64,000 nt of DNA from an uncultured Acidobacteriota bacterium (lineage in GTDB: Bacteria > Acidobacteriota > Terriglobia > Acidiferrales > UBA7541), in the NCBI GenBank assembly GCA_963703785.1, contig CAVPFR010000029.1, positions 19,036 to 83,035 of the forward strand. Reading direction: 5' to 3'. Below are positions 2,331 to 41,628 of this stretch, piece after piece. The notes below the pieces were generated by a model. It was not told the origin of the DNA. It did not search any database and saw only the letters and a program-made list of their open reading frames with translations. Position 1 is the first letter of the stretch. Every line of letters starts with the position of its first letter. A program made the translations under genes and the position numbers.

Positions 2331-2595
2331 CGCCACTTAGGCCCAGCCGCTGACCGTCATTACGCAAAACACCGCAGATCCCCGGCCTGCCCTCGGCACA
2401 CGTCGGGACCGACCCATCGGGCCGGCCTCGCGATCACAGCATCGAGCCGAAATCCCCACCGTAAAACCGACGCATCGGGCACCCACCAAGACGGCGCTCG
2501 AACATCAGTGCGTCATTTGGCACACATATGTCTATTTTATCGCGAAGGTCAAACCATTCGGCGTAGTGACAGCGAAAGCAGTCCAGGAAGGGAAG

Positions 2596-6438: not shown

Positions 6439-6475
6439 CACGAGCTTGAGTTCGGCGAAGGTATTCCGCTTTTGC

Positions 6476-7713
6476 CTAGGCTGCCATTTCTCTGGGCTGC
6501 AACGCCAAGGCGAGAACCGCGCCGATGGCGCACAACAGCGACATCTGAATCGCTCCAGCGAATACCCAACCCCATGGCTGGCCAAAGCGCGAATCAAATA
6601 ACCGCCAAACGCGGCACCGCCGTAGAGGCTGGTGACGAACATGCCCGATCCTTTGCTGGACAGGCCGCTCTGAAGCGACTTCACGTGATAGGCCGCCAGA
6701 CACACATAAAGCACCGCGCTGCCCACCACTCCGTAGATGCAGCTCAGATTTCGCGCGTCAGGACCGAAGCAGCCTGGCTGGAAGAACAGGTAGCCGAGCA
6801 CGGAAATGCAAACGAATGCCGCGCACAAGACGATTCGAGGAGGAAACGGATCGCCAAGCCAGCCGCCGGCAATCGAAGTAACGCACCGAGGCGAAGAAGC
6901 CCACCACGACTCCCGCGCGCGTGGGCGAATAGTGCAGAGTTTCCTGAAGGAAAGAGGCATAGTTCCCCAAGAATCCATACATGCTGAGCCCGTGAATAAC
7001 GCAGAGGATGGCAAGAACAATGGTGTTTCGGTTCCCGAGGCCCGCGGCACCGCCGGCCGCTCGGCGCGGGCGTGAGCCATGCGTCGCGTCTCGCTGAACC
7101 AGGGGCGCACGGTGGCGGCGATAATCGCGACCATCACGAACCCGAACAGCCCAAACGCAAGCATGGGCGCGCGCCAGTTGCCATATTTGGTAAGCAGCAC
7201 GCCGGCCAGAGAGGACCCACGAAACCACCGATGCCATAGCAAAAATTCACCGAGCCGATGGCGGCAGCCTGATAGGTGGCAAAATAACTGGCCGCCAGGG
7301 CGAACATCGAGGTAGCCAGCATGGCCATGCCGATGCCTTGCGCGGCGAGGCACAAGAGCATTCCCCAAAACCCGTGTGTGATCGTGGTCAGAGCCGTCGC
7401 ACCGGAAAAAATGCCAATCCCTACCAACATTACGGATTTGCGCGAAAGGTGCGAAAGAATATAGCCGGTGGTGAGCCCGCCGACGCCCAGGCCGAGCGTG
7501 AAGATCGTGGTGAGCAACCCGGTAATCGCCGGCGAAAAGGCGAACTCACGGCGGACATATGGGGCGACGACCGGGAAGAGATAGCGGTCCGCGGCCATTA
7601 ACACGTAAGAAAGAAGCAAAATGCAATACATCGCGATGGCGACGGAACGCGCGCCGGCTTGCTCGCGGGGAGCGGCGCTTACGCCGATCGCAGATACTCT
7701 GGGTATTGTTCAT
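6476..7713 (-). pseudogene. MFS transporter with 4-5 frame breaks
   Basis: TM-rich segments in three minus-strand frames: MYCILLLSYVLMAADRYLFPVV.. (7134..7631), SLAGVLLTKYGNWRAPMLAFGLFGF and IAGGWLGD..VTSLYGGAAFGGYLI (within 5536..7368), NTIVLAILCVIHGLSMYGFLGNYASFL (6758..7237), GQPWGWVFAGAIQMSLLCAIGAV (6476..6703); one join localised to run 7216-7218. Confidence 0.7.
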
Positions 7714-16447: not shown

Positions 16448-16524
16448 CGGGACGTAGCGCAGACTGGTAGCGCGCACGCTTGGGGTGCGTGAGGCCCCGG
16501 GTTCAAATCCCGGCGTCCCGACCA
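16448..16524 (+). tRNA. tRNA-Pro (anticodon GGG), encoded CCA
   Basis: hand-folded cloverleaf: acceptor CGGGACG/CGTCCCG, D stem GCGC/GCGC, anticodon stem CACGC/GCGTG with loop TTGGGGT, T arm CCGGG-TTCAAAT-CCCGG, discriminator A, CCA. Confidence 0.9.
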
Positions 16525-16600: not shown

Positions 16601-17390
16601 GTGCCTGAAATCCTGATAACCAACGACGATGGCATTCACGCGGCTGGCTTGCGAGCCCTGGTGGAGGCTTGGCCGGGCTGGGGACCGTCAGCGTCGTAGC
16701 GCCTAACCAGGAGCGCAGCGCCGCGGCGCAGTCGATCACTGTGCGACACCCCATCTTCTGCGAGCAGATAGCCGAGCGGGAATGGTCGATCGAGGGCACG
16801 CCGGCCGATGCCATGATGATCGCCCTGCACCGGCTCTTTCCGAAGCCACCCGACCTGGTGATCTCTGGAATAAACCGAGGGGCCAATCTGGGCGAAAACG
16901 TCTTCTACTCGGGCACCGTGGGCGCGGCCACGGAGGCGGTCATCAACCACGTTCCGGCGTTCGCCATCTCTTTGGCCCACCGAGGCAACGGAGTTTGCCT
17001 TTGACCACGCCGCCCGATTCGGCCGGCGACTAGCGCAAGTGATTCTGCAAAAGGGCTTGCCTGCGGGCGTGCTGTTGAACGTGAACGTCCCTTTGGAGTG
17101 GAATGGAGGCGTGCGCTTGACGCGGCAGTCTGGAAAGGTCACCCGGACCGTGCTCCAGGAAGGGGCTGATCCCAGGGGCCGGATCTATTATTGGCTTAAC
17201 GAGGAGCCGGTGAGCGGTCAGCCTGGACCCCCAAAGCGACTATGCCGCCGTCCTAGCGGGGCAGGTATCCGTGACACCGATCCAATTGGAACGCACCCAC
17301 GAGCGTTCCCTAGATGACCTCTCCCCATGGGCCGAACTGCTGGAAGCAGGCGTCGGTTCCGAACGGCACGAGTGGCTTTTCGATAACTGA
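16601..17390 (+). pseudogene. surE: 5'/3'-nucleotidase SurE with three frame breaks
   Basis: GTG 16601: ILITNDDGIHAAGLRALVEA, then GTVSVVAPNQERSAAAQS..SGINRGANLGENVFYSGTVGAA (ORF 16669..17004), then LPAGVLLNVNVP (ORF 17039..17317), then SDYAAVLAGQVSVTPIQL to TGA 17388-17390; joins at runs about 16669-16670, 16990-16991, 17228-17232. Confidence 0.8.
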
Positions 17391-18426: not shown

Positions 18427-19727
18427 CTAACCCCCTGGGGGCGCTCTTTCCGGAACGTGCAGGAAGAGCGCCAGCATGCCCGATAGGACCATCGATACCA
18501 GAAGAAAAGCCAAGCCCGGCGCGAAGGAATTGGTGGCGGTCCGCAGATAGCCGATAAAAAAGGGCCCCGCGAAGCCGCCTAGATTGCCGACGGAGTTGAT
18601 CAAGCCGATCGATGCAGCGGCGGCGGACTCGCTCAGCAGGGCCGTAGGCAGCGCCCAAAAACTGGGCATAAACGCCGTCGTGCACGCTCCCACGATCACC
18701 ATGCAGAGAAACGCCAAGGGCAGATGCGCGCTTGCGCGGATGGCTATCCCCAGGCATCCGGCGCCCAGGAACAAAGGCAACGCGGTATGCCAGCGGCGTT
18801 CGGCGGTGCGATCGGAATGCCACCCATTCCAGAGCATGGCGCCTAGGCCGGCAACATAGGGCAACGCGGAAAGCAGCGTAACGGCAAAATTGGGCAGGTT
18901 CGTGGCGCGCTGAACGATCGTTGGGAACCAGATCACAAAGCCATAGATTCCAATAATCGCGAAGAAATAGACGAGCGTGAGCAGAATGACTTGCTTGCTG
19001 CGCATCGCCTGGCCCATCGTCCATCCGCGGACCTGCGATTTGGCGGCTTTCTCGCGCTGGAGCTCTGCTTCGATCCAGGCCCGTTCGTCCGGCGTGAGCC
19101 AGCGCGCCTGGTGCGGCCAGTCCGTCAGATAGATCAGCGTGAGAATTCCAAACAGGATCGCGGGAATCCCTTCGGCGATGAAGAGCCATCTCCAGCTCGA
19201 GATTCCGACCCAATGCCGGCTGAGAATCCACCCGCGAGAGGCGATCCAATGATGTTCGACATAGGGATGGCCGCCATAAAGATCGCACCCGCTTTGGCGC
19301 GGTCTTCATAGCGGAACCAATGGGTGAGATAGACGACGATACCGGGGAAGAATCCAGCTTCCGCGACGCCGAGCAGGAATCGAGCCAGATAGAATTGGCG
19401 CGGAGTGCGCACCGCCGCCATGAGAAGGGTGACCAGTCCCCAGGTGACGAGGATGCGCGCCATCCACTTCCGGGCGCTCCAGCGCTCCACGATCAGCGCA
19501 CCGGGTATCTCGAAGAGGAAGTATCCGATGGAGAAGATGCCCGCGCCCAATCCAAAGACGCGATCGCTGAAATTGAGGTCGCGCGACATCTCCAGGCCGG
19601 CGTAGCCCACATTCACCCGGTCCAGAAAAGCGATGACGTAAAGGACGAAGAGGAACGGCAGGAGGCGGCGGGAGATGCGCCGAGTGGCGCGCTGTTCTAC
19701 GCCGGTGAGAACTGCGGTGGCAGGCAT
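18427..19727 (-). pseudogene. MFS transporter (anion:cation symporter-like), one frame break
   Basis: N-half ORF 19134..19727 (LPFLFVLYVIAFLDRVNVGYA) and C-half in the frame of ORF 18427..19017 extended upstream (GWILSRHWVGISSWRWLFIAEGIP); join near 19230. Confidence 0.75.
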
Positions 19728-19789: not shown

Positions 19790-21620
19790 TCACACCAATT
19801 CCGCCCGATCGAGAAGCTCCCCCGTGTAACTGTAGGTTTCCAGAGTGACGCGGGGCCCTCGCACCTGCACCAGGCAATAGGACCACGTGTGGGCCACGAA
19901 TTTCTTCACGCTTTTCGCCCACGGCACATCGCTATCCGGGGGATAGAAGGGCGCGCCCGCAGCTCCCTGGGTGATTTGCCAAGTGGGCTTGGCAAAGGCG
20001 GCGTTCGCCGTGCCGTCCCGATGGACGGGCGTCTTGCTGTCGATGAGCGTGCGGCTGTAGTTGTGCTCATGCCCGGAGAAAACAGCGCTCGCGCCGGCCG
20101 CGTTACGATGGTCCAGAAGCGATCCCGCGCTTTGACCGCCTCAGGGTCGCGGCCTCCTCCCCAAAGCGAGTCCGCCACATGCCCGCCATTTGGGAACGCC
20201 GGTTCGTGCACAAATACAAAAATGTGACGGGCTTGGGCAGACCGCGCCGCCGTCAAATCCTTTTCCAGCCAGTCCAGTTGTCCCGGAAGCAAACGCCCGA
20301 AGGGATTTCCCTCGCGCTGCTGAGGGCGGCTCGAGTACCAATAATCCGAATTGAGCTGGGAAAATGGCAGCCGGCATAATCGAAGCTATAGACGCTGCCC
20401 TTATACGGCGGCAAGCCGGGCCGTTCCGGCTCCGGGCCGTTCATGGGATGCACAAATTCCGAAGCGAACACGGCTTCGGCGCTGTGCTCTCCGTGCTTAT
20501 CGGCTTGGGCTCCGTCCTCGAATAGATCCAAAAGCGACTCGTGATTGCCCATTCCCGTATAGACGGGAATCTCGCGCCAGAGCGGCCCATAAATACGCTT
20601 CCAGGAACGTAATTGGGCGCGAAAATCGTCCTCGCGCGTGGTGTAGCCGTTGATGAGATCGCCTGTAAAAATCAGCAAGTGCGGCGCATGACCAGCCATC
20701 TGGATGGCGAGCGCGCGCGCGGAAACGCCATTAATACCTTCCAGGGCCGCGTCGCCGCCGCCCAGCCCGCCGGTGCGGCCGTCGCAAGTGAAAACAAAAG
20801 AAAATTCCGGCTCTTGCGGGGAGGTTCTCAACGTGTAGCTGCGCGAGCGGATCTCGCCGCCGTCCGATGCCTTGCTCATCACTTGATACCCGTACTTGGT
20901 GTTCGCGGTAAGCCCCTTCAGAGGCACCACATGACGGCCAGCCGCACCGCCCTCATCCGCGATTACTCGGGTATTCGCGCCGTTGCTCAGGCGCACCTGG
21001 CCCGTGGCTGGCTGGTCGGTGACCCACCAAACGACGGCGGAATCGACGGTGATTTGCGCCAGGAAAGGACCCTCCAGAATGGTGGGCAATTTGTGGAACT
21101 GGCCCCGGTCCACCTGGAAGGAGAAATGGCGGTCAATGAACTGCGCAGAGCCTTTGCGAGGATCGAAGAGCTCGAGCCGGTATGCCAGCGTGCCACCCCC
21201 TTGCAACATTTGCGGGGCCGAGCGGTTCAGGTAGGTGCGAACCTCGATATTTACCGAATGCATCAGCGTGGCGCTCTGTTCGTTCAGGGCTTGGTTGGCA
21301 TTGTAGATTGGCCAATCGAGCGCGACCTCATCATTGGGCACGCCTATATAGATCGTGCCACCCTGCGTGGGAGTCACCGTCTCCCAGGCGATAGTAGCTG
21401 AGCCTCCGGCATCAAGGCTGACTTGAGGCTCCGACTGGAGCAAGCGTTCGGGGGCCCGCTCAAGGCCTCGTTCGGGAGCCGATTTAGCCGGCGTGGCTTG
21501 GTCATGTGGGGCCGGTGCCGTTGCCTGGGGCAGCATCTCTTCCGCCAGCAGGCCATCGAGCGCAGCGCCGGCTGCGGTCGTGCCAAAGACTTTGAGCAGG
21601 TCCCTGCGGTCAATGCTCAT
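19790..21620 (-). pseudogene. Tat-secreted metallophosphoesterase (calcineurin-like, beta-sandwich N-domain), two frame breaks
   Basis: twin-arginine signal MSIDRRDLLKVFG; GDLINGY, GMGNHE, then FVFVHEP and SGHEHNY in shifted frames; joins at A/T runs 20361-20364 and 20103-20104; stop TGA 19790-19792. Confidence 0.75.
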
Positions 21621-21683
21621 GGTTCTCTCCTAAAACGCATCGTCGTTGTCCATACAAGGGCTCTCGATACAAGGCACGGGACA

Positions 21684-21713
21684 CGGCACTTCGGCCGCGA
21701 CGAAGAAGTGCCG
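21684..21713. other. perfect 9-bp stem-loop in the divergent intergenic region
   Basis: CGGCACTTC (21684-21692) pairs with GAAGTGCCG (21705-21713), 12-nt loop. Confidence 0.6.
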
Positions 21714-21733
21714 AGAAATCAACACAGTCGCCT

Positions 21734-21755
21734 ATTCTAAGCGCCCATTCTAAGC
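21734..21755. promoter_or_regulatory. tandem direct repeat ATTCTAAGC x2 (13-nt period), candidate operator
   Basis: copies at 21734-21742 and 21747-21755, between the divergent phosphoesterase and ATP-grasp genes. Confidence 0.4.
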
Positions 21756-21923
21756 ATAAGTTGAGCTGGCTCGGCCGCTGCGTGCGGACCGATGTGGCGG
21801 CGCCTGGCCGGAATTGCAAACTCCGTGAATCGCCACCCGGATTGCCGCCTAAATTGCTGATGGACCGCATAGAAATTTTGCGTGAAGGCCTCTCCAGCCC
21901 GGCTGATACAGTAATCCAACTTT

Positions 21924-23408
21924 ATGGAGGCCGCACCCGTCCGCGCTACCGTCACCGGGCTCTTCTCCGGCTATGAGCCGGGGAGTTTCTACGACGAAAT
22001 GTTCATTTCGGCGGGCGTGCCGCGTCCCTCGTACGCCAATGTCTTCCAAAAACTGGCCTCCATGGCTCGCGAGCAATTCGAGGAGCGGCGCAAGCTGGCC
22101 GACCTTTCCTTCCTGATCCAGGGCATCACGTTCACAGTCTATAGCGATGGCCGAGGCACCGAGCGCCTCTTTCCCTTCGACTTGATCCCTCGGATTGTTC
22201 CGAATACGGAATGGCGGCGAATCGATCGCGGCCTAGCGCAGCGGGTGGTGGCCCTGAACCTCTTCCTGCAGGACATCTATGGCAAGCAATGCATCTTAAG
22301 GGATCGCAAGCTATCGCGCGCTCTGGTCTACTCCTGCCCCCACTTCCGTCGCGAGATGGTGAATGTGGAGGTTCCGCGAGGAATCTTTACGCACATTTGC
22401 GGGATTGATCTGGTCCGCGATTCCAAGACAGGCGAGTACTACGTCCTGGAAGATAACGTCCGCACTCCCAGCGGCATTTCGTACGTTCTCGAAAACCGGC
22501 TGGTGATGACGCGAATCTTCCCGGAATTCTTTCATGCCTGCGGGGTGTTACCCATCGATCATTATCCCGCGGAACTCTGGCGAATCCTGCGCAGCCTCTC
22601 ACCTCGCGGCGAAGATGACGCGCAGATCGTGCTGCTCTCGCCGGGCATTTACAACAGCGCTTACTTCGAACACAGCTTTTTGGCAAGGCAGATGGGCATT
22701 GAACTGGTGGAGGGCCGCGACCTGGTGGTGGATGGCGGCATCGTGTACATGAAAACGATCCGCGGCCTAAACCGCGTGGACGTCATCTATCGGCGCATCG
22801 ACGACGAGTTCTTGGATCCGCTGGCCTTCCGGCGCGACTCGCTGCTGGGCGTTCCCGGATTGATGGGCGCTTACCGCTCCGGCAACGTGGCCTTGGCAAA
22901 CGCGGTCGGCAACGGCGTGGCGGACGACAAAGCGATCTATGCCTACGTCCCCGAATTCATCCGCTATTACCTGGGCGAGGAGCCGATTCTGCGAACGGTG
23001 GAAACCTACGTCTGCGCCCGACCCACCGATCTCGCCTTTGTCCTGGAACACCTTTCCGATCTGGTGGTGAAGGCCGTGGGCGAATCCGGCGGCTACGGAA
23101 TGCTAATGGGACCAACGGCGGATCGGAAAACGATCGAGCAGTTCCGCGCCAGAATCATTCAAAATCCGCGCAACTACATCGCCCAGCCGGTGATTCCGCT
23201 CTCCCGCGTACCCTCCTACGACGTTTCCAGCCGGCGCTTGGCCGGCCGCCACGTGGATTTGCGCCCGTATTGCCTTTACGATGGCGAGAAAGTGACCATC
23301 GTTCCGGGAGGGCTGACGCGCGTGGCCCTGCAGCGCGATTCGCTGGTTGTCAATTCGTCGCAGGGCGGCGGAAGCAAGGATACCTGGGTGTTGCGAGGAG
23401 AGGACTGA
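21924..23408 (+). CDS. circularly permuted ATP-grasp type 2 protein (COG2308-like)
   Basis: 494-aa ORF; sequence recognised as the family that always precedes alpha-E proteins; stop overlaps the next start (TGATG at 23406-23410). Confidence 0.75.
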
Positions 23409-24364
23409 TGCTTTCGCGCATTGCCGATTCGCTTTTCTGGCTGGCGCGCTATATCGAACGCGCCGAAGATACGGCGCGCATTCTCGATGTGAACTATCAC
23501 ATGCTGCTCGAGCAGTCCCAGGAGGCCTATCACCTGCGATGGGAGCCGCTGATGGTGATGGCGGGAGAAGAAAATCTCTTCCACCGGCTCTATTCCGAAG
23601 TGAACGCCGAGAACGTCTTCGAGTTTCTGGCATTTCGTCACGACAACCCCAGTTCCATCGTTGAATGCATCGCCAAAGCTCGCGAGAATGCGCGCACCAT
23701 CCGCGACTGCATCTCCCGCGAGATGTGGGAGGACATCAACGGCCTGTATCACATGGTGAGCCGGTTCAATGCCAGCGACGAAATCGTCGCCGGGCCGCAT
23801 CGCTTTTGCGACAAGATCAAATTCGGCACGCATCGCTTCCACGGCGTCACCGACGCCACCCTGGAGCACGACGAGGGCTGGCAATTCCTGCGCATCGGCT
23901 GGTCGCTGGAGCGCGCGGAAATGACTTCACGCCTGGTGGACGTGCAGTATCAAAATTTACTGGACGAATTGCCCATGGTGGGAACGCCGGACAACCATCA
24001 ATGGATGGCCGTGCTGCGCTCCGTGGGCGCTTTCGAGGCCTATCATCGCCAGTTCCACTCTTCCATCGAGCCCGAGAAAGTGGCCGGCATGCTCATTCTT
24101 AAACCGCTACTCCCTCGCTCGATCCGTTTCAGCACCACGGAAGTGCAATCCGGCCTGCGTGCCATCAGCGGCAGCAGCCCGGGCTCCTACGCGAACGAGG
24201 CGGAAAGGCTGGTGGGCAAAGTGGTGGAAAGGCTCAGCTACGATAAAATCGAGGAGATTTTCAAACAAGGGCTGCATAACTATCTGAACGAACTTTCCGA
24301 TATGTTTGGCCTGATTGGCAGCGACATCGCCCGCAACTACTTCTACTATGCGGGCGTGGCATGA
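23408..24364 (+). CDS. alpha-E domain protein (COG2307-like)
   Basis: ATG 23408; hallmark N-terminus [28 protein letters not shown]. Confidence 0.8.
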   Translation: MLSRIADSLFWLARYIERAEDTARILDVNYHMLLEQSQEAYHLRWEPLMVMAGEENLFHRLYSEVNAENVFEFLAFRHDNPSSIVECIAKARENARTIRDCISREMWEDINGLYHMVSRFNASDEIVAGPHRFCDKIKFGTHRFHGVTDATLEHDEGWQFLRIGWSLERAEMTSRLVDVQYQNLLDELPMVGTPDNHQWMAVLRSVGAFEAYHRQFHSSIEPEKVAGMLILKPLLPRSIRFSTTEVQSGLRAISGSSPGSYANEAERLVGKVVERLSYDKIEEIFKQGLHNYLNELSDMFGLIGSDIARNYFYYAGVA

Positions 24365-25332
24365 ATCGATATCACCTGATCCATGTTACCGAGTTCGCTT
24401 ACGACGACCCTGTTTCGGAAAGCTATAACGAGTTGCGCCTGAGGCCCATGCACGACGAGCGGCAAAGTTGCCTGTCGTTTCGCATCATCACCGAGCCGCA
24501 CGCCAGCGGCACAACTTACCGCGATGCCTATGGCAATTCCGTGTACCAATTCAACATCCTTCAAGAGCACCGGCGCTTGAGAATCGAAGCGGAATCCATC
24601 GTCCTGACGCACGAGATTCCGGAGGCCGCCTGCCAACCAATGAAGCTGGCGGAACTTGACTCGATGGAGGACGAGTTGCGCGAAGAGTACTTCGACTTCA
24701 TCGCGCCCACGGGATACGTTCCCCACCTCCCGGAGCTTCGTCGTTTTATCGAGGCGGCGGAAGCGGCAAGCGGGGGCGTCCTAACGTTTGTGCACAGGGT
24801 TTCCAGCTTGCTTCACGATAGCTTCCAATATCTGCCCGGCGCCACTCACGTACACTCATCGATCGCCGATTCTCTATCGATCAGCGCGGGCGTTTGCCAG
24901 GACTTTGCGCATCTGCTCTTGGGAGCGGTGCGCATGCGCGGCTTGCCGGCTCGGTACGTTTCGGGCTATCTGGTTCCGGCACGAACCGCGTCTCCGCAGA
25001 GCAGGCAAGAGGAGGTAATCGGCGGTCAGGCTTCGCACGCCTGGACCGAGGTGTTGATTCCGGGAAGCGGCTGGGTAGGGGTGGACCCCACGCTCGGCGC
25101 TCCCGTGGGCCTTCGGCACGTGCGCATCGCGTACGGCCGCGACTACGGCGACGTGGCGCCGGTTCGCGGTGTTTACCAAGGCCATGCCGGGCAGCGCCTC
25201 TCGGTGGACGTCCGGGTGCGTCCGGCTCTCGATGACGAAGGCCACGAGCAACTTGCCAAGACTGCCGCGGCGCCTCCTCCCTCGGCGCCCGTCATGGAAC
25301 GCGCCCAGCAACCCGCGCAGCAGCAGCAATAG
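24361..25332 (+). CDS. transglutaminase-like cysteine protease family protein (Bact_transglu_N + transglutaminase core)
   Basis: ATGA overlap with alpha-E stop; catalytic Cys GVCQDFAH, His SHAWTEV, Asp GVDPT. Confidence 0.85.
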   Translation: MNRYHLIHVTEFAYDDPVSESYNELRLRPMHDERQSCLSFRIITEPHASGTTYRDAYGNSVYQFNILQEHRRLRIEAESIVLTHEIPEAACQPMKLAELDSMEDELREEYFDFIAPTGYVPHLPELRRFIEAAEAASGGVLTFVHRVSSLLHDSFQYLPGATHVHSSIADSLSISAGVCQDFAHLLLGAVRMRGLPARYVSGYLVPARTASPQSRQEEVIGGQASHAWTEVLIPGSGWVGVDPTLGAPVGLRHVRIAYGRDYGDVAPVRGVYQGHAGQRLSVDVRVRPALDDEGHEQLAKTAAAPPPSAPVMERAQQPAQQQQ

Positions 25333-25385: not shown

Positions 25386-26184
25386 TCAAAGCTGGATTGG
25401 GGCGAGGGGTTCGTGCTGCGAAGCTACTAGCAACTCGCCGCGAAAGGCGGCTTCGCCGGGACGACGGCCCAGCGCTTCTTCCGCGCAGATACGAGCGACA
25501 TCGGGATTGTTGTTATTTTCCGAGAGATGCGCCAGCACCAGGTAGCGCGGGCGCGCGTCAAAGGCCTCGGGATCGGCGAGAAACGTGCTGACCATTTCAT
25601 TGGAAAGATGTCCCGTGCGGCTCATGACGCGCTGCTTCACATGCCAGGGATACGGACCAACCTTGAGCATCTCCAGATCGTGATTCGATTCCAGCACCAT
25701 TCCATCGCAATCGCGCAGATGCTGCTTCACGAGCTCGGGCATGTAACCGAGATCGGTGACGAGCGCGAGCTTCACGCCGCCGGCACGAAAGGTGAAGCCA
25801 AGCGGGTCGATGGCGTCATGCGGGATGCGGAAGGGAGCAACCTCGATATCGCCGACGCAAAATCCGTGGCCGGCTTCAATGAACTCGACGCGCTCGAGGC
25901 GGCGCGCATGCCGTTCGGGGAAGAAAACGCAGAGTTTCGGCATGGGTTTCCGCATTGAGGTAGACGGTGGTGCGCCAGGCGCCCAGCAGGGCCGCCAGAC
26001 CGCCGATGTGGTCGGTGTGTTCGTGAGAGATGACGATGCCGTCGAGGCGATCCAGGGAATGAGCCAGCGCAGCCAGGCGGCGCAACGTTTCGCGCTTTCC
26101 CAAGCCCGCATCCACCAGCAGGCGCGTCTGGGAAGTCTCGAGCAGGGTGCAATTGCCCGAACTGCCCGACGCGAGAACGCTCAC
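25386..26184 (-). pseudogene. MBL-fold metallo-hydrolase, one frame break
   Basis: HEHTDHIGG motif (ORF 25876..26184) continues in ORF 25386..26111 (ERHARRLERVEFIEAGHGF..HD..TGHLSN); join at run 25917-25920. Confidence 0.75.
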
Positions 26185-26425
26185 GCGAAGGCTGATGGAT
26201 CTCCCCCCGAAACCTGCACCCCATCATGCGTAAAAGCGACGCATGCTGGGGGCCCCGCCGAAACCTGCCGCTGACCGGCTGCAAGCGCAAAAAAGCGGCC
26301 GCACGCATCATGGCAAAAGCGCGGGGCAGGCGTCAACGCAATTCACGAGATTTTGTGATTATGAAGGCGAGGGGTACAACCTATGGGGGTCGCATTCCGG
26401 TTCACCACCGCGCGCCAGAGGCCGC

Positions 26426-33962: not shown

Positions 33963-36900
33963 CTACTTGAATCGCTGCCGGCGAACGATGTCGACACCGA
34001 AGGTGCCGTTTTCATCGCGCAAGGCGACCACGGAGATGTCGGGCCGCAGGGTGTATTCGATCTGAATGATTTGCTCCTGAGTGGAGGTCACATCGGTGCT
34101 GTAGGTGATGACCAGGTTGCGCGCGAACTGCTCGGCAATGGTGACGCGCGCGCCGGGATTCTGGGTGGCGCTGGTAGCGGCAATGTAGTCTGGATCGACG
34201 CTGAAATGGCGCACTCCAAAAAGGCGCTGCACGCGCCCGCCTAGCTGGGAGGAGATCGCTTCGGAAAGCAACGTGGTCGCGCCAAGTTGGGGGGTCTGGG
34301 TGGCCGCGGCGCCGCCTCGAAGGCTGCTTTCCTGGCCCGTTTGTCCGAGGGCCAGCAGGGTGACGATATCGTTCGAGGGCAAAGGAGGATCGGAGCGATA
34401 GGACATGATCAAATGGCTTGCGGGGCCGGTGAAATCGACGGTGACCTCGTATTGCTGGATGGTGGTGGCCACCTCGACGTTGAGCACCGGATCGGCGCGA
34501 AACGGGTTCACGAAATTCAAGTCGCCACGCGTCAAATTGTAGTCATTGCCGCGCATGGTCATCCGTCCGTTCAGCAAATGGATATTGCCGAGGAGGACCG
34601 GGTGGTCAAAGGTGCCGCGGACACGCACGTTGGCCTCGGTCTGAAATCTGCCGCTAGACCATTCCATGACCGCGCCGGAAGTGGTATTGGCTTGCACGTC
34701 GAACTGCAAGTTCCGCAAGAAGGGAGACGTTGCCGTGGAGCCGGCGGAAGTCTCGGCGGAAGAGGCGAGCAAAGTTGTGACGTCGAACCCTTGCGACATG
34801 AGCAAACGGTCGACACTTACTGTCCCGGAAAGAGTAGCTGACTGCGTCGTGCCCAATAGGCGCAAATCGCCGCCCGCGAGCCAGCTCATGCCTACCGGAT
34901 AGCGTACGCGCACCTGTGCGGTCCGCGCCGTAAGATCGTAACTCACGGGCCCATTGCCGTAGCTCAGCGAACCGGATAGCTGCAGGCGGCCGCCTCCTGT
35001 GTCCGAGTTGATATTGGAAAACGTGATGCGGCTGGCATCGAAGATAAAATCGCCGGCGAGCTGGCTCAGGCCCGCGGGAAAATCTCCGTACCGCACCGAA
35101 GTGTCCTGTACGTGAACGCGCCCGGTGATGCGCGGGTTGTACAGCGTGCCGGCGATCCCGGCATCGATCTGTGCGGGACCCCGTACATCCAGGTTGGGCA
35201 CGAATCCGCTGAACAGGCGCAGGTTCGCCGCGCCGGTGAGGCGCAAATCCATGGCGCGGTCCCCCGCAAACCGTGCCAAACCCGTGATACGGAAGTCCGT
35301 ATCGGCGCCGCGCAGATTGGCCTGGCGCACCTGGACTTCGTGATTGCCGTATTGGAGCAGCACCGGGCCCTGGTTCTGCAGCTTGATATATTGATAATCG
35401 AGCGAGAGCTGCGTGAGATTGGCGTCCACGGAAATTGTGTCTGGCTGCAGGAGCGCGCCGGAGATGCCAAACCGGCCCACGACCTGGCTATGGCCGGTCA
35501 TGCCGCCGAGATGCAAGGCGCTGACGATCAAGGGATCGAGGTCGATCTGCGAAACCATGATTTCGCCGGTAAGCGGATAGCTGCCGTGCAAATCTACATT
35601 TACGTTGCCGTGCAGCTCTCCCGTAGTGATTGCCGAATCCACTTGTAAACCGAGCTTGGAGCCGTCGGATTGGAGCTTGGCATCGAAACTGCCCACCACT
35701 TCGTTTCGGAATCGCAGATCCACCAAGCGCAGTGCGCCATCCAGTTTGGGGGCCAGCAACGGTCCCTGACCGCTCAGATGGAAACTGACCTTGCCCGCGA
35801 TGGGCAGGGCAGGCGTCTGGATGAGCGAGACGCTTTCGAGCGGGAGTGCGGCGCCCGTCAAATCGAAAACAGCCTGGCCGTCCGCCGTGCTGTAGTTGAA
35901 ATTGCCGGTCAGCAAACCGGGAGCTTGCGGAGTCGCCGTTCCACCCGCCGGAGGCAGTAGACGCAATTCCGCATTGGCAATACGAACCTGGCCGTGGCGA
36001 AGCGTGATTTGGCCGCGGGCGCGATCGAAACGCCAACCCCAGGCTTGCGGATCAACCACGTCGAACAAGCCCGTCAACTCCGGATTGGCATGCGTTCCAC
36101 GGCCGTGAAATGTTCCACTCAACAGGCCATGCGCGGGATACGCGGTTCCAAATAGCGCCTGCAATCCATCCGCGTCCGTGCGGACCAGGGTGGCGTCCAT
36201 TTGCCAGGAGCTGTCGGGATCGAAGCCCCACTTATTCAGCATCAACGACAGCTCGAGTTGAGCGGAGGAAGGCTCGCGGCGCACGTTGGCGCGAGTCAGG
36301 CTGAACCCCTCAGGCGAATAGATCATGTCGCCTTCGATTTGGTCCCACATAAGCCTGTCGTAACGGGCGCTTGTTCCCACCACGTGGCCGGCGAAGGTTG
36401 GGCCCACCAGGGGTCCTGTTATGCTGCCCTGCCAATGGGCGCGTCCGGCGATGATTTTGGGCTCGGCGTCCTCGCCTCTGATGCGGTTTATGAAATCATC
36501 CCAGGGCATAAGGTCCTGAGAATCGAACATCACTTCGAGTTTGGAAGCTTCCGCCGCGAGCGTTCCGGCGAACTGCACCGTACTCGTAGGCGTGTCGATA
36601 TGGCTGGCATCCAGCACGACGTCCCGCGCCGCCATGCTGTAGTGATAGTTCAGGCTTGCAGTGATAGGAATCTGGCCTGCGGGCAACTGAGGTTTCGGTA
36701 CCCAAAGAGAGATGCCCCGCGAATCAAGCTTCTTGAAGTCCGATGTCCAGGTGGTGACCGCTTGCACGTCGGCAATTCCGCCCCAATGCAGGGGAACGAT
36801 CGGGAGACTATCGTTGTTAACCGCCGCCAGGAGCGTGGCCAAATCGATATCATGCGCGTGGGCGTTCACGCGAAATTCCAGCTTCGGAAAATCAAGATGA

Positions 36901-37952
36901 AGCTGGCCCTCAATCGCTCCGCCCAGCGCCGCAATCGAGAACTGGGGGACATCGAGCGACACGCGGTTCGCGCGGTAGGTACCGCGAGTGCTGATGCCGG
37001 AAGCGTGGAACCAGCCATAAGGCATGGCGATATTCGCCGCGGAGTAGGTCCCGGTCACAGCCAAGCGATTATCTAGGAAATGTCCGTCACCGGAGAATTC
37101 GACCTCCCCGGAGGGAGTGGTTGGTTTGCGCAGCAGGGTGCGGATATCCTCGAGGCTGAGGTGCCCACGATAGCGAAAGCCCCAATTGGGATGCGCAAAG
37201 CTCGAGTTGGTAACCTGGGCGTCAATGGAGGTGTGCGGACCCTGCCAGAGCAGTTGTGTGATGGTGAAAGAATCCGGCTGGAGCGTGAATCTCACCGACA
37301 GGTCGGAAGTAAAGGGCAGATAGCGGCGGGCCACCAACTCCATGTGTTGCCATCGCAATTGGCCCAGGTACATGGACTTGCGATCAAGTTCGGCATAGTC
37401 GACGCCAAAATCAAACTGCCCGCCCTCGGCCACCAGGGGGACGCGCACATCGTTCCAAAGCATCTCGCCATCCGTGAGGCGCAACCGGCGCGCTGCGATC
37501 TCAAAAATGCGCTGCCGCAACGGCTTCGAAGAGGTGCTGCTTCGCGCCATGGGCACATTAATAGAACCGTCGCGTTCCACGCGCACATGCACCGTGGGAT
37601 GAACGATTTCGACGTCCCCAAGGGAGATTTTGCGCGCCCAAATCGAATCGATGCGCAGCCCGACCTCCAGCCGTTCGGCGTGAAAGAATGGCGGCGTCCC
37701 TGCCGGCTCGCGTCCATGGACCGTGAAATCGCTCAGGGTCACTCGGAGCCGCCAGGGATTAAAGTGAAAGTCTCGCAATTCGGCCGTGCCGGAGGTGAAT
37801 TTCTGGATCTGCGCGACGATGGCACCCCGGATGTAATTATCCGCCGCGCCGCTGGAAACGATGAGTAAGGCCACGAGCGGCACCGCTAACGTCATAACTA
37901 CCAACCCCACGATCCAGGGCAGCAACTTTCGGCTTATCCCAGGTCGGTTCAT
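33963..37952 (-). CDS. tamB: translocation and assembly module protein TamB (DUF490 C-terminus)
   Basis: 1329 aa, N-terminal signal anchor, repetitive beta-rich body; ATGA start overlap with the upstream gene. Confidence 0.8.
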   Translation of the reverse strand: MNRPGISRKLLPWIVGLVVMTLAVPLVALLIVSSGAADNYIRGAIVAQIQKFTSGTAELRDFHFNPWRLRVTLSDFTVHGREPAGTPPFFHAERLEVGLRIDSIWARKISLGDVEIVHPTVHVRVERDGSINVPMARSSTSSKPLRQRIFEIAARRLRLTDGEMLWNDVRVPLVAEGGQFDFGVDYAELDRKSMYLGQLRWQHMELVARRYLPFTSDLSVRFTLQPDSFTITQLLWQGPHTSIDAQVTNSSFAHPNWGFRYRGHLSLEDIRTLLRKPTTPSGEVEFSGDGHFLDNRLAVTGTYSAANIAMPYGWFHASGISTRGTYRANRVSLDVPQFSIAALGGAIEGQLHLDFPKLEFRVNAHAHDIDLATLLAAVNNDSLPIVPLHWGGIADVQAVTTWTSDFKKLDSRGISLWVPKPQLPAGQIPITASLNYHYSMAARDVVLDASHIDTPTSTVQFAGTLAAEASKLEVMFDSQDLMPWDDFINRIRGEDAEPKIIAGRAHWQGSITGPLVGPTFAGHVVGTSARYDRLMWDQIEGDMIYSPEGFSLTRANVRREPSSAQLELSLMLNKWGFDPDSSWQMDATLVRTDADGLQALFGTAYPAHGLLSGTFHGRGTHANPELTGLFDVVDPQAWGWRFDRARGQITLRHGQVRIANAELRLLPPAGGTATPQAPGLLTGNFNYSTADGQAVFDLTGAALPLESVSLIQTPALPIAGKVSFHLSGQGPLLAPKLDGALRLVDLRFRNEVVGSFDAKLQSDGSKLGLQVDSAITTGELHGNVNVDLHGSYPLTGEIMVSQIDLDPLIVSALHLGGMTGHSQVVGRFGISGALLQPDTISVDANLTQLSLDYQYIKLQNQGPVLLQYGNHEVQVRQANLRGADTDFRITGLARFAGDRAMDLRLTGAANLRLFSGFVPNLDVRGPAQIDAGIAGTLYNPRITGRVHVQDTSVRYGDFPAGLSQLAGDFIFDASRITFSNINSDTGGGRLQLSGSLSYGNGPVSYDLTARTAQVRVRYPVGMSWLAGGDLRLLGTTQSATLSGTVSVDRLLMSQGFDVTTLLASSAETSAGSTATSPFLRNLQFDVQANTTSGAVMEWSSGRFQTEANVRVRGTFDHPVLLGNIHLLNGRMTMRGNDYNLTRGDLNFVNPFRADPVLNVEVATTIQQYEVTVDFTGPASHLIMSYRSDPPLPSNDIVTLLALGQTGQESSLRGGAAATQTPQLGATTLLSEAISSQLGGRVQRLFGVRHFSVDPDYIAATSATQNPGARVTIAEQFARNLVITYSTDVTSTQEQIIQIEYTLRPDISVVALRDENGTFGVDIVRRQRFK

Positions 37953-38638
37953 TGTTTTTCACCGGGATTGACTGCGGAGAAAGAGTCCATCGGCTCGAGT
38001 TCGATCTTCATCCTCGGCTTGGTTTCATCGAACCATTCCGCGGTGCGGTCATTCACGCCTTGCTCGATGAGGAGCTCGCGAATCTGATCGGTCACATCCG
38101 TTAAGGGAGGCGCGTGCTGGCCTTTTGCCTGAAGTTCAGGCAGCAGGTGATCCCGATAATAGTTTGCGATGGCGGCATCATCCACTTGAACCGATGATTG
38201 AAATTTGTAATCGAGATAACGGGCCAGATAGATTTGCCGCGTCATCACCCGGCGCAGGGCTTCTGAAGTAAGAGCGACTTGGCCGAGGCGCTGCTCGAAC
38301 GCGGCTGTATTGGGAAAGCTATTCTGGACGCGGCTCATTTCGCGATCCACTTCCGCCGCCGCCGGCATGGGGAATCGCGCGCCGGTAGCCTCATCATTCA
38401 GTATCCACTGCTCGATCAGCTCCGACCGCAGCTCTTCGTCGGTTTGGAAGTGGCCATCGAGGAGTTGCTGATAGGCCGCCAGTTCGCGGAGCTCACTGAA
38501 CGCGATGATGTCGCCTTCGATGCGCGCCACAATGCCGTCCACGATTTGCGGCTGCGAATGGCCTTGCGCCGCGACGCAAGCGGCCGGGGAAAAGGCCCCG
38601 AGCAGAGCACACAACACGAGGATAGCCCCGAGGCGCAT
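37949..38638 (-). CDS. SurA N-terminal-domain-like periplasmic chaperone (no PPIase domain)
   Basis: signal peptide; IVARIEGDIIAFSELRE.. helical chaperone-type sequence; overlaps bamA stop and tamB start. Confidence 0.6.
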   Translation of the reverse strand: MRLGAILVLCALLGAFSPAACVAAQGHSQPQIVDGIVARIEGDIIAFSELRELAAYQQLLDGHFQTDEELRSELIEQWILNDEATGARFPMPAAAEVDREMSRVQNSFPNTAAFEQRLGQVALTSEALRRVMTRQIYLARYLDYKFQSSVQVDDAAIANYYRDHLLPELQAKGQHAPPLTDVTDQIRELLIEQGVNDRTAEWFDETKPRMKIELEPMDSFSAVNPGEKQ

Positions 38639-41628
38639 CAGAACGTGGACCCCAGATTCACGAAAAATTGAAACGCCGGCAGACGCTGCACGGTTAGGGG
38701 TCCCCCCGACACGGCGGAATTGGCCGGAACGAGAAAATTGGCCGGATTGAGCTGATACGCCAGATCGATGCTCACCGGCCCCACGGGCGTGTGATAGCGA
38801 ATTTCAAACCCCACCGTGTGCGAAAAATAATTCAGCTCATTGGTGCAATCAGTAAGACAAACGCCCCCTAGGTTCACCATGGGCATCGGGGGAGCGGAAC
38901 GCAAAGTAATAGCGGAAAACGTCTGGAACACGTTTCCGGCGTCATAAAAAACTCCCCCGCTGGCGCGCGAGCCGATTAACGGAAGGCGCATGGGAAATTC
39001 CAATTGCTGATTGAAAGTGAGCAGGCCCAATCCGCCGACAGGAAAGCCCGTCACCGGATCGCGCGGACCGGCCTGATTGAGTCCAAATCCGCGCAGCGTG
39101 GTGCCACCGCCGGCGAAAAAGCGCTCAGGCAATGGAATATCCGACAGGGTCGAACCGGCGAAGGGTTCCTCTATGCCAATGCGTGTTGACCGGGCAAAGA
39201 CGAATATTGAGCCCAGGTGCGTGTAGGTGGAATTCTGAAGGGTTGCGCGGAGAAAGGAAGCGGCAGAGCCGAAGTCCTGGCTGGCCACGTCGATGTCGAA
39301 TGTATTGAAACTTCCGCGAGCTGGGTCGGCGGCATTATCGCGGCGGTCGCGAACCCAGGTGAAAGCGAAGAAAGCGACCTGTGTGGGCTGATTAAAAAGG
39401 GGAATCTCTTCCGGCGCAACTTGCAAATCGGTGGCCTGCACGCGGCGATACACGAATCGATAAAGAAGGGACGTAAGGATCGAGCGCCGATCGGTCAATT
39501 GAGCGGAGCCCTCTTCGCGCGTGGACGTGAAGGTTTGCACGTCGCGCGCTTTGACGTAGTCGCCGATGAGCTGAAAGCTCATGGTGGGGAGAAGAAAATG
39601 GGGCGAGGAGCTGTAGGTAAGCAGGGCCCGTCCCTGCAATAAGCTGGCCCGCGCTTTGAAGGAGAGCGAATCGGCGCGGCCAGTGAGATTGAGCTTGGTG
39701 AATTCGCTGGTGAGGCGCGGGCTGAAGTAGAGCGGCTCGGCCACTGGGCCGGTGCTGGCGGTCCCAAGCCGCTGGGCTTCCAAGCCCAGACCATAACCAA
39801 CGGTGTAGCGCCGGGCCTCGTCCACCAGGAGGTCGATCGTTTTTGACGTGCCGCTGCCTTCCGGGTCCTGCGGTGCAATGGCCACGCGGCTAAATATCCC
39901 CAGATTATACAGCCGACGCTGCGTTTCCACCACCGCGCTTTCGCTGAAAGGCCCGCCCGGGTGCAGTTGCACCTCGCGAACAATCACGCTCGGATGCGTA
40001 TGCTGGTAGCCGCCCACAAGAACCTGCGCGACGCGAATCTGCTCGCCTTCCTCAATTTGATACGTAAGATTCACGCGCGGACCCTCGCCGGGCTGAGCGG
40101 GGATGTTATCCACCGAGGCGTGAAATTGGGCGTTGGGAAAACCCTGGTCGTAGTAAAGCGTCAGCACGTTGTCACGGTCGCCGGCGACGTTGAGATCCGA
40201 ATACGGCTGCCCCGCCGTGGATCCGATCGCGCCGGAAAGCTCCTGGCTGCTGATGGCGTGGTTGCCCTCGATCATGAGGTTGGCAATGCGCGTCTGCGGA
40301 CCTTCCGCGATCCGGAAAGTGATCAAGAGGTCGCCCGGGTGGCCTCGATAGTTGTCCATCAGATCACTGCTCACCTGGACTTCCCGGAAGCCGTTGGATT
40401 GATACAGTTCGGCGATCGAGGCCACGTCATTCGTCAGCTGCCCTGAACTGAAGCGCTCCGGGGAGCCAAATGCCGCGGGCTGGATGCGGATGCGGCCGCG
40501 CAGCAAATCGTCGCGAAAGTAATGGTTTCCGGAGAACGCCAAACCCACCAGCCGCTGATGCGACCCTAATTCCACGCGATAAGTGATCACTTCCATATTT
40601 CCCGGCTGGCTCTCCTCGGGATCCTCGGAAGTCGTGTAATCGACCTCGGCGTCGAAATATCCCCGGCGCTCCAGATAATCGCGCAAATTGCGGCGGCCCT
40701 CCTGAAGCAGATCTTCGTCGACCGCACCCTCCTCGAAGATTGGCAGCAGGGACCGTAACGTGCTCTCCGAAACCTTCGCTCCAAGCACTTGCACGCGTAC
40801 CTTGAGCTGCGCAGACACAGATGCCTGCAGCGCCACGGTGTTTGTATCGGGCTCGTATGCACCGCGCACCACTGAGACGCGAGCGCCCAGATAGCCGCGC
40901 CCAGTGAGCCATTTGCGGCTGTTTTGCACGCTTCTCTCCAGCGCTTCCGACGTCACTCTGGTCTTGGGCTTAAGGCGGAGGCGGTCGCGGATCTCCGCCT
41001 CGGTGAAGGGAGACTGATTGACCAAGTTGATCGTTCCCACGCGCGCGCGCTGGCCCTGAACGACGTCGACAATAATATCCATTTGCCGCGTAGCCACGTG
41101 AGGCACGAGACGGTAACTGAGCTTTGCTTGATACAGTCCTTCGTCTTCCAGCGCATCTTTCAAGCGGTCTAACGCCGCAGGGATATCGGACTCACGAAAA
41201 GGCTCGCCCAGTCCCAGGCGCATGGAAGAGACGGCGACGCTGTCGCTCGGCGGCTCGTGAAGCCCATTCACGCGAACCGCGTCCACGAAGAAATTTGGCC
41301 GCACCAGGAAATCCACCTGCAAGCCTTGGGGCACGTTGGTAACCTGGACTACGATGTCGGCATATAGTCCCGTGCGATAAAGCTGGCGCAGGCTTTGGCG
41401 TTCTGCCTCAATAGTGAATGACTGATTTAGTTGGAGCGGCAGGCCCGAGGCCTGGACCTGAAGGACTTCGCCGGACTGGTCCAGGATGCGAATCGCAGCC
41501 ACCCGCTTGCCTTCGATCTGTCCCGCGGACTGCGGCGCTGCTTGGGTTTGAGCCAGAGCGCTCGCTGCGCAGGACAGGCCTATGCCGGCCAGAAAAAGAA
41601 GAACTGCACAGGGACGATTCGCAATCAT
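38638..41628 (-). CDS. bamA: outer membrane protein assembly factor BamA (Omp85), unusually long
   Basis: 996 aa; signal peptide, repeated POTRA-like units, C-terminal beta-barrel ending ..FQFFVNLGSTF. Confidence 0.85.
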   Translation of the reverse strand: MIANRPCAVLLFLAGIGLSCAASALAQTQAAPQSAGQIEGKRVAAIRILDQSGEVLQVQASGLPLQLNQSFTIEAERQSLRQLYRTGLYADIVVQVTNVPQGLQVDFLVRPNFFVDAVRVNGLHEPPSDSVAVSSMRLGLGEPFRESDIPAALDRLKDALEDEGLYQAKLSYRLVPHVATRQMDIIVDVVQGQRARVGTINLVNQSPFTEAEIRDRLRLKPKTRVTSEALERSVQNSRKWLTGRGYLGARVSVVRGAYEPDTNTVALQASVSAQLKVRVQVLGAKVSESTLRSLLPIFEEGAVDEDLLQEGRRNLRDYLERRGYFDAEVDYTTSEDPEESQPGNMEVITYRVELGSHQRLVGLAFSGNHYFRDDLLRGRIRIQPAAFGSPERFSSGQLTNDVASIAELYQSNGFREVQVSSDLMDNYRGHPGDLLITFRIAEGPQTRIANLMIEGNHAISSQELSGAIGSTAGQPYSDLNVAGDRDNVLTLYYDQGFPNAQFHASVDNIPAQPGEGPRVNLTYQIEEGEQIRVAQVLVGGYQHTHPSVIVREVQLHPGGPFSESAVVETQRRLYNLGIFSRVAIAPQDPEGSGTSKTIDLLVDEARRYTVGYGLGLEAQRLGTASTGPVAEPLYFSPRLTSEFTKLNLTGRADSLSFKARASLLQGRALLTYSSSPHFLLPTMSFQLIGDYVKARDVQTFTSTREEGSAQLTDRRSILTSLLYRFVYRRVQATDLQVAPEEIPLFNQPTQVAFFAFTWVRDRRDNAADPARGSFNTFDIDVASQDFGSAASFLRATLQNSTYTHLGSIFVFARSTRIGIEEPFAGSTLSDIPLPERFFAGGGTTLRGFGLNQAGPRDPVTGFPVGGLGLLTFNQQLEFPMRLPLIGSRASGGVFYDAGNVFQTFSAITLRSAPPMPMVNLGGVCLTDCTNELNYFSHTVGFEIRYHTPVGPVSIDLAYQLNPANFLVPANSAVSGGPLTVQRLPAFQFFVNLGSTF

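Follow-up and report, generated by a model that had tools for sequence, protein, structure and literature searches.

A stand-alone copy of the ATP-grasp, Alpha-E and transglutaminase-like core of the Anbu operon in an uncultured acidobacterium, and its glutamine-ended C-terminal tail as a candidate substrate

A stretch of 64,000 nucleotides from the chromosome of an uncultured soil bacterium of the Acidobacteriota (Terriglobia; contig CAVPFR010000029.1; the whole stretch is referred to as the window) carries three overlapping genes for a circularly permuted ATP-grasp protein, an Alpha-E protein and a transglutaminase-like protein. Judged by families and gene order, this triad is an Anbu-less copy of the COG2308-COG2307-COG1305 module, which forms genes one to three of the 'Anbu operon'. 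This module was already published in 2008-2009 (Valas and Bourne 2008; Iyer 2009), and the window adds only another copy of it. A feature missed in the first reading of the window is the C-terminus of the transglutaminase-like protein. Its conserved free C-terminal glutamine is a new lead on an old question, modest but concrete. On this basis a family of models is put forward, tentatively and as a serious possibility, in which the module would act on its own tail, with the Gln-ended C-terminus of the transglutaminase-like protein as substrate. The features of the triad are the following.

21924-23408, + strand: ATP-grasp gene (gene 1), 494 aa, COG2308, circularly permuted; predicted carboxylate-amine ligase
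23406-23410, + strand: TGATG junction, in which the gene 1 stop codon TGA (23406-23408) and the gene 2 start codon ATG (23408-23410) share one A
23408-24364, + strand: Alpha-E gene (gene 2), 318 aa, COG2307; the true start is the ATG at 23408
24361-24364, + strand: ATGA junction, a 4-nt overlap of the gene 3 start codon ATG (24361-24363) with the gene 2 stop codon TGA (24362-24364)
24361-25332, + strand: transglutaminase-like gene (gene 3), 323 aa, COG1305, Bact_transglu_N and Transglut_core
24895-24897, 25036-25038 and 25084-25086, + strand: codons of the catalytic residues Cys179, His226 and Asp242 of gene 3
25225-25329, + strand: variable Pro/Ala-rich linker (residues 289-315) and tail QQPAQQQQ (25306-25329) of gene 3, directly followed by the stop codon

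For the window, family membership, gene order, tight coupling and an intact Cys-His-Asp triad are established. The gene 1 product matched the Pfam family CP_ATPgrasp_2 over the full length of the profile (1.8e-163) as well as CP_ATPgrasp_1 (3.4e-140), and its residues 23-491 matched PDB entry 3N6X (2.7e-166), a structural-genomics entry and the sole solved homologue of the ATP-grasp protein. The gene 2 product covered profile positions 1-294 of 294 of the family Alpha-E (1.3e-96); its N-terminal ER motif was present, with R14, Y15, E17 and R18 invariant in 50 sequences. For the gene 3 product, Bact_transglu_N (3.4e-23) and Transglut_core (9.5e-19) were matched, the motifs GVCQDF, HAWTEV and GVDPT were located at residues 177, 226 and 240, and the alignment with PDB entry 3ISR (6.2e-11) placed the Cys and His motifs in register. 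The residues Cys179, His226 and Asp242 were invariant in 62 of 62 orthologues. None of the three proteins was matched by an NCBIfam model or by the anti-phage defence models of PADLOC. The ligase and the Cys enzyme of the triad are likely active, in view of the invariant catalytic residues and of the phosphate that the Yersinia ATP-grasp protein frees from ATP, a reaction not stimulated by Anbu (PMC6376114).

These results bear out most of the structural claims of an earlier note on this DNA, namely three intact genes with stop-on-start junctions (an exact match by open reading frames (ORFs) and direct sequence reading), the Pfam assignments, a complete papain-like triad and the hallmark N-terminus of Alpha-E. 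Its claim of stoichiometric co-expression goes further than the junctions allow: the overlapping codons suggest translational coupling but are no proof of stoichiometry. A Shine-Dalgarno-like stretch, GGAGAGGA, was read directly in the sequence immediately 5' of the TGATG junction.

The conservation of the triad was analysed in 80 related loci of ~21 kb each, mostly from Acidobacteriota and a few from Chloroflexota, with ATP-grasp proteins of 60-94% identity. Their ORFs were predicted with a gene caller based on GC content at third codon positions (GC3) and clustered all-against-all. The same three genes were found in the same order, with ATP-grasp in 79 loci, Alpha-E in at least 71 and the transglutaminase-like gene in at least 62, the latter two counts being lower bounds because the gene caller is imperfect. 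In 59 of 82 related loci the ATP-grasp and Alpha-E genes were spaced by -1 to +4 nt. The Alpha-E and transglutaminase-like genes overlapped as ATGA in 52 of the 80 related loci and also in the Anbu operons of Yersinia and Aeromonas. Besides the triad no family, and hence no conserved neighbour or substrate gene, was present in more than 13 of the 80 loci. Likewise, no precursor, carrier or transporter gene was conserved beside the triad in these loci, and no small conserved ORF adjoined it in the loci or in the window. Since order and junctions are conserved without any conserved neighbour gene, the triad is a self-contained unit. The nearest relatives were metagenome-assembled Acidobacteriota (Terriglobia, 'Acidiferrales'); in the loci L001 and L002 the orthologues of gene 1 were 93-94% identical and free of frame breaks, with synteny to the window at ~12-33 kb. 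The triad is also carried by Granulicella mallensis (L077).

Gene fusions point in the same direction. An 860-residue protein of Caballeronia joins ATP-grasp to Alpha-E, which argues that these two act together, and the proteins P0192 and P0196 join an N-terminal Alpha-E to a transglutaminase-like domain. As the fusions run both ways and match the gene order, Alpha-E would be placed physically between both enzymes. The AlphaFold2 model of Alpha-E consists of helices only, with a predicted local distance difference test score (pLDDT) of 81.7 and a predicted template modelling (TM) score of 0.83; no relative of it was found in the PDB either by sequence or by fold (best Foldseek E-value 0.28, TM score <0.3). 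Taken together, conservation across the 80 loci, the junctions and the fusions suggest that ATP-grasp, Alpha-E and the transglutaminase-like protein form one functional unit, with Alpha-E as the probable bridge linking the ligase to the transglutaminase-like protein. In a further variant of the family, P0228 (406 aa), the transglutaminase-like part is followed by a STAS domain at the C-terminus.

In the 'Anbu operon' the genes follow in the order COG2308, COG2307, COG1305 and the proteasome beta homologue Anbu (PMC3235984, PMC5666114, PMC6376114), with Pseudomonas, Yersinia, cyanobacteria and others as hosts. Canonical four-gene operons with the same triad order were recovered from Ralstonia (L086), Aeromonas (L087) and Yersinia (L089). 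In the 64-kb window and the 80 relatives, Anbu was matched at E<=10 neither by tblastn with the Anbu protein of A. caldus nor by a five-sequence hidden Markov model searched against six-frame ORFs. This agrees with Fuchs et al., who do not list Acidobacteria among the Anbu-bearing phyla, and with Valas and Bourne, who reported COG2308 in some genomes without Anbu (PMC3235984). Anbu-less triads were also located on Deinococcus and Hymenobacter plasmids.

An amidoligase combined with a peptidase or transamidase was predicted by Iyer 2009, as that work is cited in PMC3495828, PMC6376114 and PMC5666114. The Aravind group predicted a peptide-ligase system, with tags set by ATP-grasp and undone by the transglutaminase-like peptidase, and likened it to tubulin tagging of the TTL type (PMC3495828). 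According to a note added in proof that refers to Hervas 2008, the operon was the most induced one in nitrogen-limited P. putida (PMC3235984), and PP_2685 and PP_2688 of this species were up ~16-fold on nitrate versus ammonium (PMC8050072 Table 2). A related B. cenocepacia cluster showed strong dependence on NtrC and sigma54 (PMC5491218), and in marine metagenomes the triad domains co-vary with urea-metabolism domains (PMC3597751). Anbu had no peptidase activity in vitro (PMC6376114), and Rv2411c and Rv2567 were negative for synthesis of gamma-aminobutyrate-trehalose (bioRxiv 10.64898/2026.04.15.718621). No defined substrate of the module was found in the searchable literature up to mid-2026.

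Set against this record, the earlier note was right that the triad recurs across bacteria (the 80 loci and the operons of Yersinia, Aeromonas and Ralstonia), and the amidoligase and peptidase/transamidase function that it proposed is the published prediction, as far as the citing papers relay it. Its description of the triad as without assigned function misses that the triad already has a name as the core of the Anbu operon. The statement that neither substrate nor phenotype is defined stands in its first half, while 'no phenotype' is too strong because expression data and some biochemistry exist for the Anbu operon. That no precursor, carrier or transporter gene lies beside the triad was upheld by the 80 loci, but the conserved Gln tail had been overlooked as a candidate built-in substrate. 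Profiling of the gene neighbourhood, which had been proposed as a route to a co-varying substrate gene, yielded none in the 80 loci.

Two side observations concern genes beside Anbu or in its place. On the A. caldus megaplasmid (L085) two Anbu paralogues that are 52% identical (2415-3185 and 6054-6818, both - strand) lie beside genes for a large transglutaminase, ATP-grasp and Alpha-E, with glnL, a nitrogen-regulation kinase gene, a few kb off; 7011-7201 (+ strand) also belongs to this observation. A 'putative zinc-binding metallopeptidase' composed of Peptidase_Mx and a zinc ribbon is encoded divergently beside the triad of Hymenobacter (L084:3554-4507, - strand) and also within the Caballeronia cluster (L081:8535-9596, - strand), and this protein may stand in for Anbu as the processing peptidase.

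The C-terminus of the transglutaminase-like protein in the window reads ...ERAQQPAQQQQ, followed by the stop codon. All 62 orthologues taken from the 80 loci, those of Chloroflexota among them, have a run of Q at or close to the terminus, preceded by a variable Pro/Ala-rich linker. In the 120 closest clusters (90% identity) at least two terminal Gln residues were counted in 115, and the other five had a run of Q7-9 followed by 3-7 residues. Over 129 full-length representatives of the family (33-66% identity), at least three terminal Gln were found in 25 and at least five in 18. Furthermore, 113 of 118 gammaproteobacterial homologues of the Aeromonas protein, a set that includes Klebsiella, Dickeya, Erwinia, Alcanivorax and Yersinia, ended in Gln (43 in one, 34 in two and 36 in three or more). 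As a control, 1,024 ORFs of the same loci showed a terminal Q in 5%, QQ in 0.2% (2/1024) and QQQ in 0.1% (1/1024).

While the linker could not be aligned among homologues, the terminus was kept. Tailed forms cluster in the family tree, the nearest neighbour being tailed for 23 of 29 tailed compared to 12 of 99 untailed forms, and they share <=40% core identity with one another. Outside the Acidobacteriota, the orthologue of Hymenobacter (Bacteroidota, L084) ends in QQQQ, the one from the Aeromonas Anbu operon (L087) in QQQ and the Yersinia protein (L089), the gene of which lies within a verified four-gene Anbu operon, in ...MSQ. The length of the run varied among close relatives from 4 residues in the window to 6 in L001 and 8 in L002. 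In the AlphaFold2 model the tail had a pLDDT <40, consistent with disorder. The Deinococcus transglutaminase-like protein ends in ...RQE, with no terminal Gln; the ATP-grasp protein of Deinococcus deserti (L082:5977-7779) carries a C-terminal extension of ~110 residues that is rich in Gln, Glu and Pro and of low complexity. No mention of the C-terminal Gln tail was found in the searchable literature, although Iyer 2009 might still mention it.

For the favoured family of models, it is proposed that ATP-grasp, Alpha-E and the transglutaminase-like protein would work as a single complex, in which Alpha-E would bridge the ATP-dependent carboxylate-amine ligase and the Cys-His-Asp amidase/transamidase, and in which both enzymes would form and cleave one and the same amide bond. 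The target bond would be situated on the flexible Gln-ended C-terminal tail of the transglutaminase-like protein itself. Several elements of this scheme have precedents. Enzymes of the transglutaminase fold canonically use Gln as acyl donor, and C-terminal tails of proteins are acted on by RimK, which adds Glu to the Glu-ended tail of S6, by TTL and TTLL, which modify tubulin tails, and by LysX, which loads the LysW tail. In pupylation, Dop converts the GGQ end of Pup to GGE by deamidation, and PafA then links it to lysines ahead of the proteasome. Three variants are conceivable. The ligase might extend or charge the terminal carboxylate of the tail in the manner of RimK, TTL or LysX; alternatively, the Cys site might turn the terminal Gln to Glu, the carboxylate of which the ligase would then join to an amine in the manner of Dop and PafA, a variant that agrees with the co-occurrence of the module with Anbu in other lineages; or the Gln side chain might serve as direct acyl donor for the Cys site. 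In proteobacteria the module is switched on by nitrogen limitation. The more specific proposal, a C-terminal modification cycle like that of Pup-Dop-PafA or RimK-S6 on unrelated folds, in which the Cys-His-Asp site and the ligase would deamidate, transamidate or extend the tail, with coupling to Anbu where present, is regarded as doubtful in its full form.

The upstream intergenic region is located as follows.

21621-21923, + strand: non-coding upstream intergenic region, presumed location of the promoter

In comparison to L001 and L002 this region contains indels of 26, 13 and 4 nt, and no sigma70-like promoter was matched on its + strand. No convincing sigma54 -24/-12 element was seen upstream of the window triad, where the best candidate had three mismatches. 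Of 79 acidobacterial loci, seven gave weak matches ahead of the triad in the same scan, with 0.058 expected per 400 nt as background, while near-consensus sites with one mismatch precede the copies in Aeromonas and A. caldus. Because the acidobacterial matches are weak and occur at background frequency, the link to nitrogen is borrowed from proteobacteria. Neither an Rfam family or riboswitch upstream of the triad nor a convincing terminator around it was detected. Short upstream sequences are shared among some loci: the k-mer GCTGATACAGTA (21898-21912 in the window) is common to eight other loci, and the k-mer CGATAGATTCTTTCGT was observed upstream of the ATP-grasp gene in another subset of loci, both at -20 to -50 and at fixed distance to the ATP-grasp start in 9-12 of 78 loci. 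These shared k-mers may mark a promoter or leader, or may simply go back to common ancestry.

Several observations weigh against action on the module's own tail. About three quarters of the diverse family representatives are short forms that end after the last strand without a Gln tail, and the tail is missing in Ralstonia, the protein of which comes from an Anbu operon and ends in ...EAA, as well as in the small transglutaminase of Caballeronia. Since most of the diverse family members are without it, the tail is not a universal substrate. The AlphaFold2 model of the transglutaminase-like protein is poor (pLDDT 59) and gives no docking information, no experiment ties the tail to either enzyme, and the scan of 79 loci yielded neither a convincing sigma54 promoter nor any other sign of nitrogen control for the acidobacterial copies. 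From the published work, the Yersinia ATP-grasp was stimulated by neither free glutamine nor free glutamate (PMC6376114), and pull-downs with Anbu as bait recovered no partner (PMC6376114). The transglutaminase in those pull-downs bore a C-terminal FLAG tag, which would mask the Gln terminus.

The absence of the tail in many family members means that, at least for these, a substrate outside the module is needed, and this favours the published prediction (PMC3495828, PMC6376114), in which generic tagging or small-peptide synthesis acts on other molecules: ATP-grasp would add amino acids or a peptide to another protein or metabolite and the transglutaminase-like peptidase would take this tag off again, while the Gln tail would be a docking, regulatory or autoinhibitory (pseudosubstrate) element. 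The lineage-dependent choice of associated peptidases, Anbu in some and Peptidase_Mx with zinc ribbon in others, would also suit tagging and processing. Yet the 80 loci show no conserved gene beside the triad that would be a candidate for a target, precursor or carrier, and a tail used for docking only is hard to square with a near-universal free terminal Gln in two distant subfamilies. This explanation is held to be rather unlikely, although it deserves to be kept in mind. The possibility that the tail is neutral and of low complexity, arising by CAG/CAA slippage, and that the product of the triad is a small metabolite, for instance a gamma-glutamyl or polyamine amide, is considered quite improbable. 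The differences in run length between the window, L001 and L002 (4, 6 and 8, respectively) are indeed typical of repeat slippage, the depositors of 3N6X labelled it 'putative glutathionylspermidine synthase', and a pair of ATP-grasp ligase and papain-like amidase parallels the E. coli glutathionylspermidine synthetase/amidase. A neutral repeat would not, however, remain exactly C-terminal across phyla at <=40% core identity, nor would 43 gammaproteobacterial clusters have retained it as one terminal Gln, and no structure of a true glutathionylspermidine synthetase was matched by sequence at E<=10.

Nitrogen-scavenging protein turnover, listed as a hypothesis in PMC6376114, is favoured by the strong induction under nitrogen limitation in P. 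putida, the NtrC/sigma54 dependence in B. cenocepacia, the sigma54 promoters upstream of proteobacterial copies and the finding that in marine metagenomes the domains vary together with those of urea metabolism (PMC3597751). In such a scheme the transglutaminase-like protein would be a protease or protein-glutamine deamidase liberating ammonia or amino acids, ATP-grasp would recapture nitrogen or act as an ATPase helper, and Anbu, where present, would degrade proteins. This is judged unlikely: the nitrogen yield of protein Gln deamidation is small, the acidobacterial loci scanned have neither a convincing sigma54 promoter nor a nitrogen-related neighbour, neither Alpha-E nor the ligase chemistry is explained, and Anbu was without peptidase activity in vitro (PMC6376114).

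The genes around the triad are of housekeeping type (der/engA GTPase, M20 and M16 peptidases, NAPRTase, RlmN, YfiH-family, TamB, BamA, SelB and a sigma54 activator), and several of those nearby carry frame breaks. Further features of the window are listed below.

2596-3657, - strand: sigma54-dependent activator gene
16448-16521, + strand: tRNA gene, the only Rfam match within the window
16601-17387: broken gene of 262 residues, three breaks
18427-19727: broken gene of a major facilitator superfamily transporter
19793-21620: broken metallophosphoesterase gene
33963-41628, - strand: TamB and BamA-type outer-membrane assembly pair
50070-52022, - strand: SelB selenocysteine elongation factor gene

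Compared to the intact orthologues in L001 and L002, ~16 window-specific single-base indels were counted in coding sequence at 12.6-20.4 kb. Two more lie in a metallo-beta-lactamase-fold gene at 25.9-26.2 kb (25900-26210) and one at ~31525, ~19 in all. They are mostly located outside homopolymers, and at the amino-acid level the broken genes are still 88-96% identical to their orthologues. Judged from these comparisons, the indels are probably sequence or assembly errors or very recent events, not old pseudogenes. The intactness of the triad amid broken genes had been taken earlier as a sign that the module is maintained. The breaks are real in this sequence, but selective sparing is unsupported: they are regionally clustered, and 4.7 kb at 26.4-31.1 kb as well as the der gene inside the affected region are equally intact, so that the triad is not specially spared.

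The module is widespread, with at least 7,500 Alpha-E clusters (90% identity) among 8,000 scored candidates and 13,092 cluster representatives of the transglutaminase-like protein (50% identity, E<=0.001). Pathogens that carry it were encountered here in Yersinia and Klebsiella, and the literature adds Pseudomonas, Burkholderia and Mycobacterium. As a system the triad of the window offers little novelty, being an ordinary Anbu-less member of a well-known module. The comparison with its relatives shows that throughout the Acidobacteriota examined the core of three genes occurs by itself, with no Anbu, and the tail is the main new point. If true, action on its own tail would give the 17-year-old question of the 'Anbu operon' a concrete and testable substrate, and C-terminal tags on the transglutaminase-like protein may inactivate the system.

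Among known systems the Anbu operon is the closest, sharing families, order and overlapping junctions with the window triad, and the transglutaminase-like proteins of its Yersinia and Aeromonas copies are Gln-ended as well. In contrast to it, Anbu is missing from the window and from the 10 kb around the triad in its 80 relatives, the window triad has no convincing sigma54 promoter, and the tail of the window is longer, with a linker of ~27 residues and QQPAQQQQ compared to 1-8 residues in gammaproteobacteria. A second type of cluster, found in Caballeronia, is built from the same domain families and encodes a large transglutaminase family protein, the fused ATP-grasp-Alpha-E protein and a small transglutaminase. 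It differs from the window, where three separate proteins are encoded and no transglutaminase of 1100 residues is present, and its small transglutaminase lacks the Gln tail. M. tuberculosis Rv2567 may belong to this second type. The NtrC/sigma54-dependent B. cenocepacia cluster I35_5080-83 also includes a large transglutaminase-like protein according to the annotation in the papers cited above.

With E. coli Gss the triad has in common a ligase and a papain-like Cys-His amidase on one amide bond, but the amidase is transglutaminase-like here and of the CHAP type there, and Alpha-E is an extra component. Identity as a glutathionylspermidine synthase was rejected at the sequence level: phmmer against the PDB at E<=10 returned only 3N6X and noise, and in Pfam only the CP_ATPgrasp families were matched. 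A graspetide/microviridin-type cluster of ribosomally synthesized and post-translationally modified peptides was likewise discarded, given that there is no separate precursor gene, that the 300 nt upstream are non-coding and rich in indels, and that no small gene is conserved across the 80 loci. The proposed scheme resembles pupylation in its flexible C-terminal Gln, its enzyme capable of Gln deamidation and its carboxylate-amine ligase that depends on ATP; in other lineages the operon also encodes a proteasome homologue. The likeness is one of logic only: Dop and PafA are glutamine-synthetase-like whereas ATP-grasp and papain-like folds are used here, the GG motif is absent, the Gln is placed on an enzyme of 323 residues and not on a small tag, and no Pup-ligase family was found for the three triad proteins in the Pfam and NCBIfam searches. 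Compared to RimK-S6, TTL/TTLL-tubulin and LysX/ArgX-LysW, the ATP-grasp protein of the window is circularly permuted, the tail ends in Gln and not in Glu, and the eraser would be of transglutaminase fold and not an M14 carboxypeptidase. What the triad shares with these systems is an ATP-grasp ligase together with a flexible protein C-terminal tail, the encoded end of which resembles the residues that are added, as in ribosomal protein S6, which ends in Glu-Glu.

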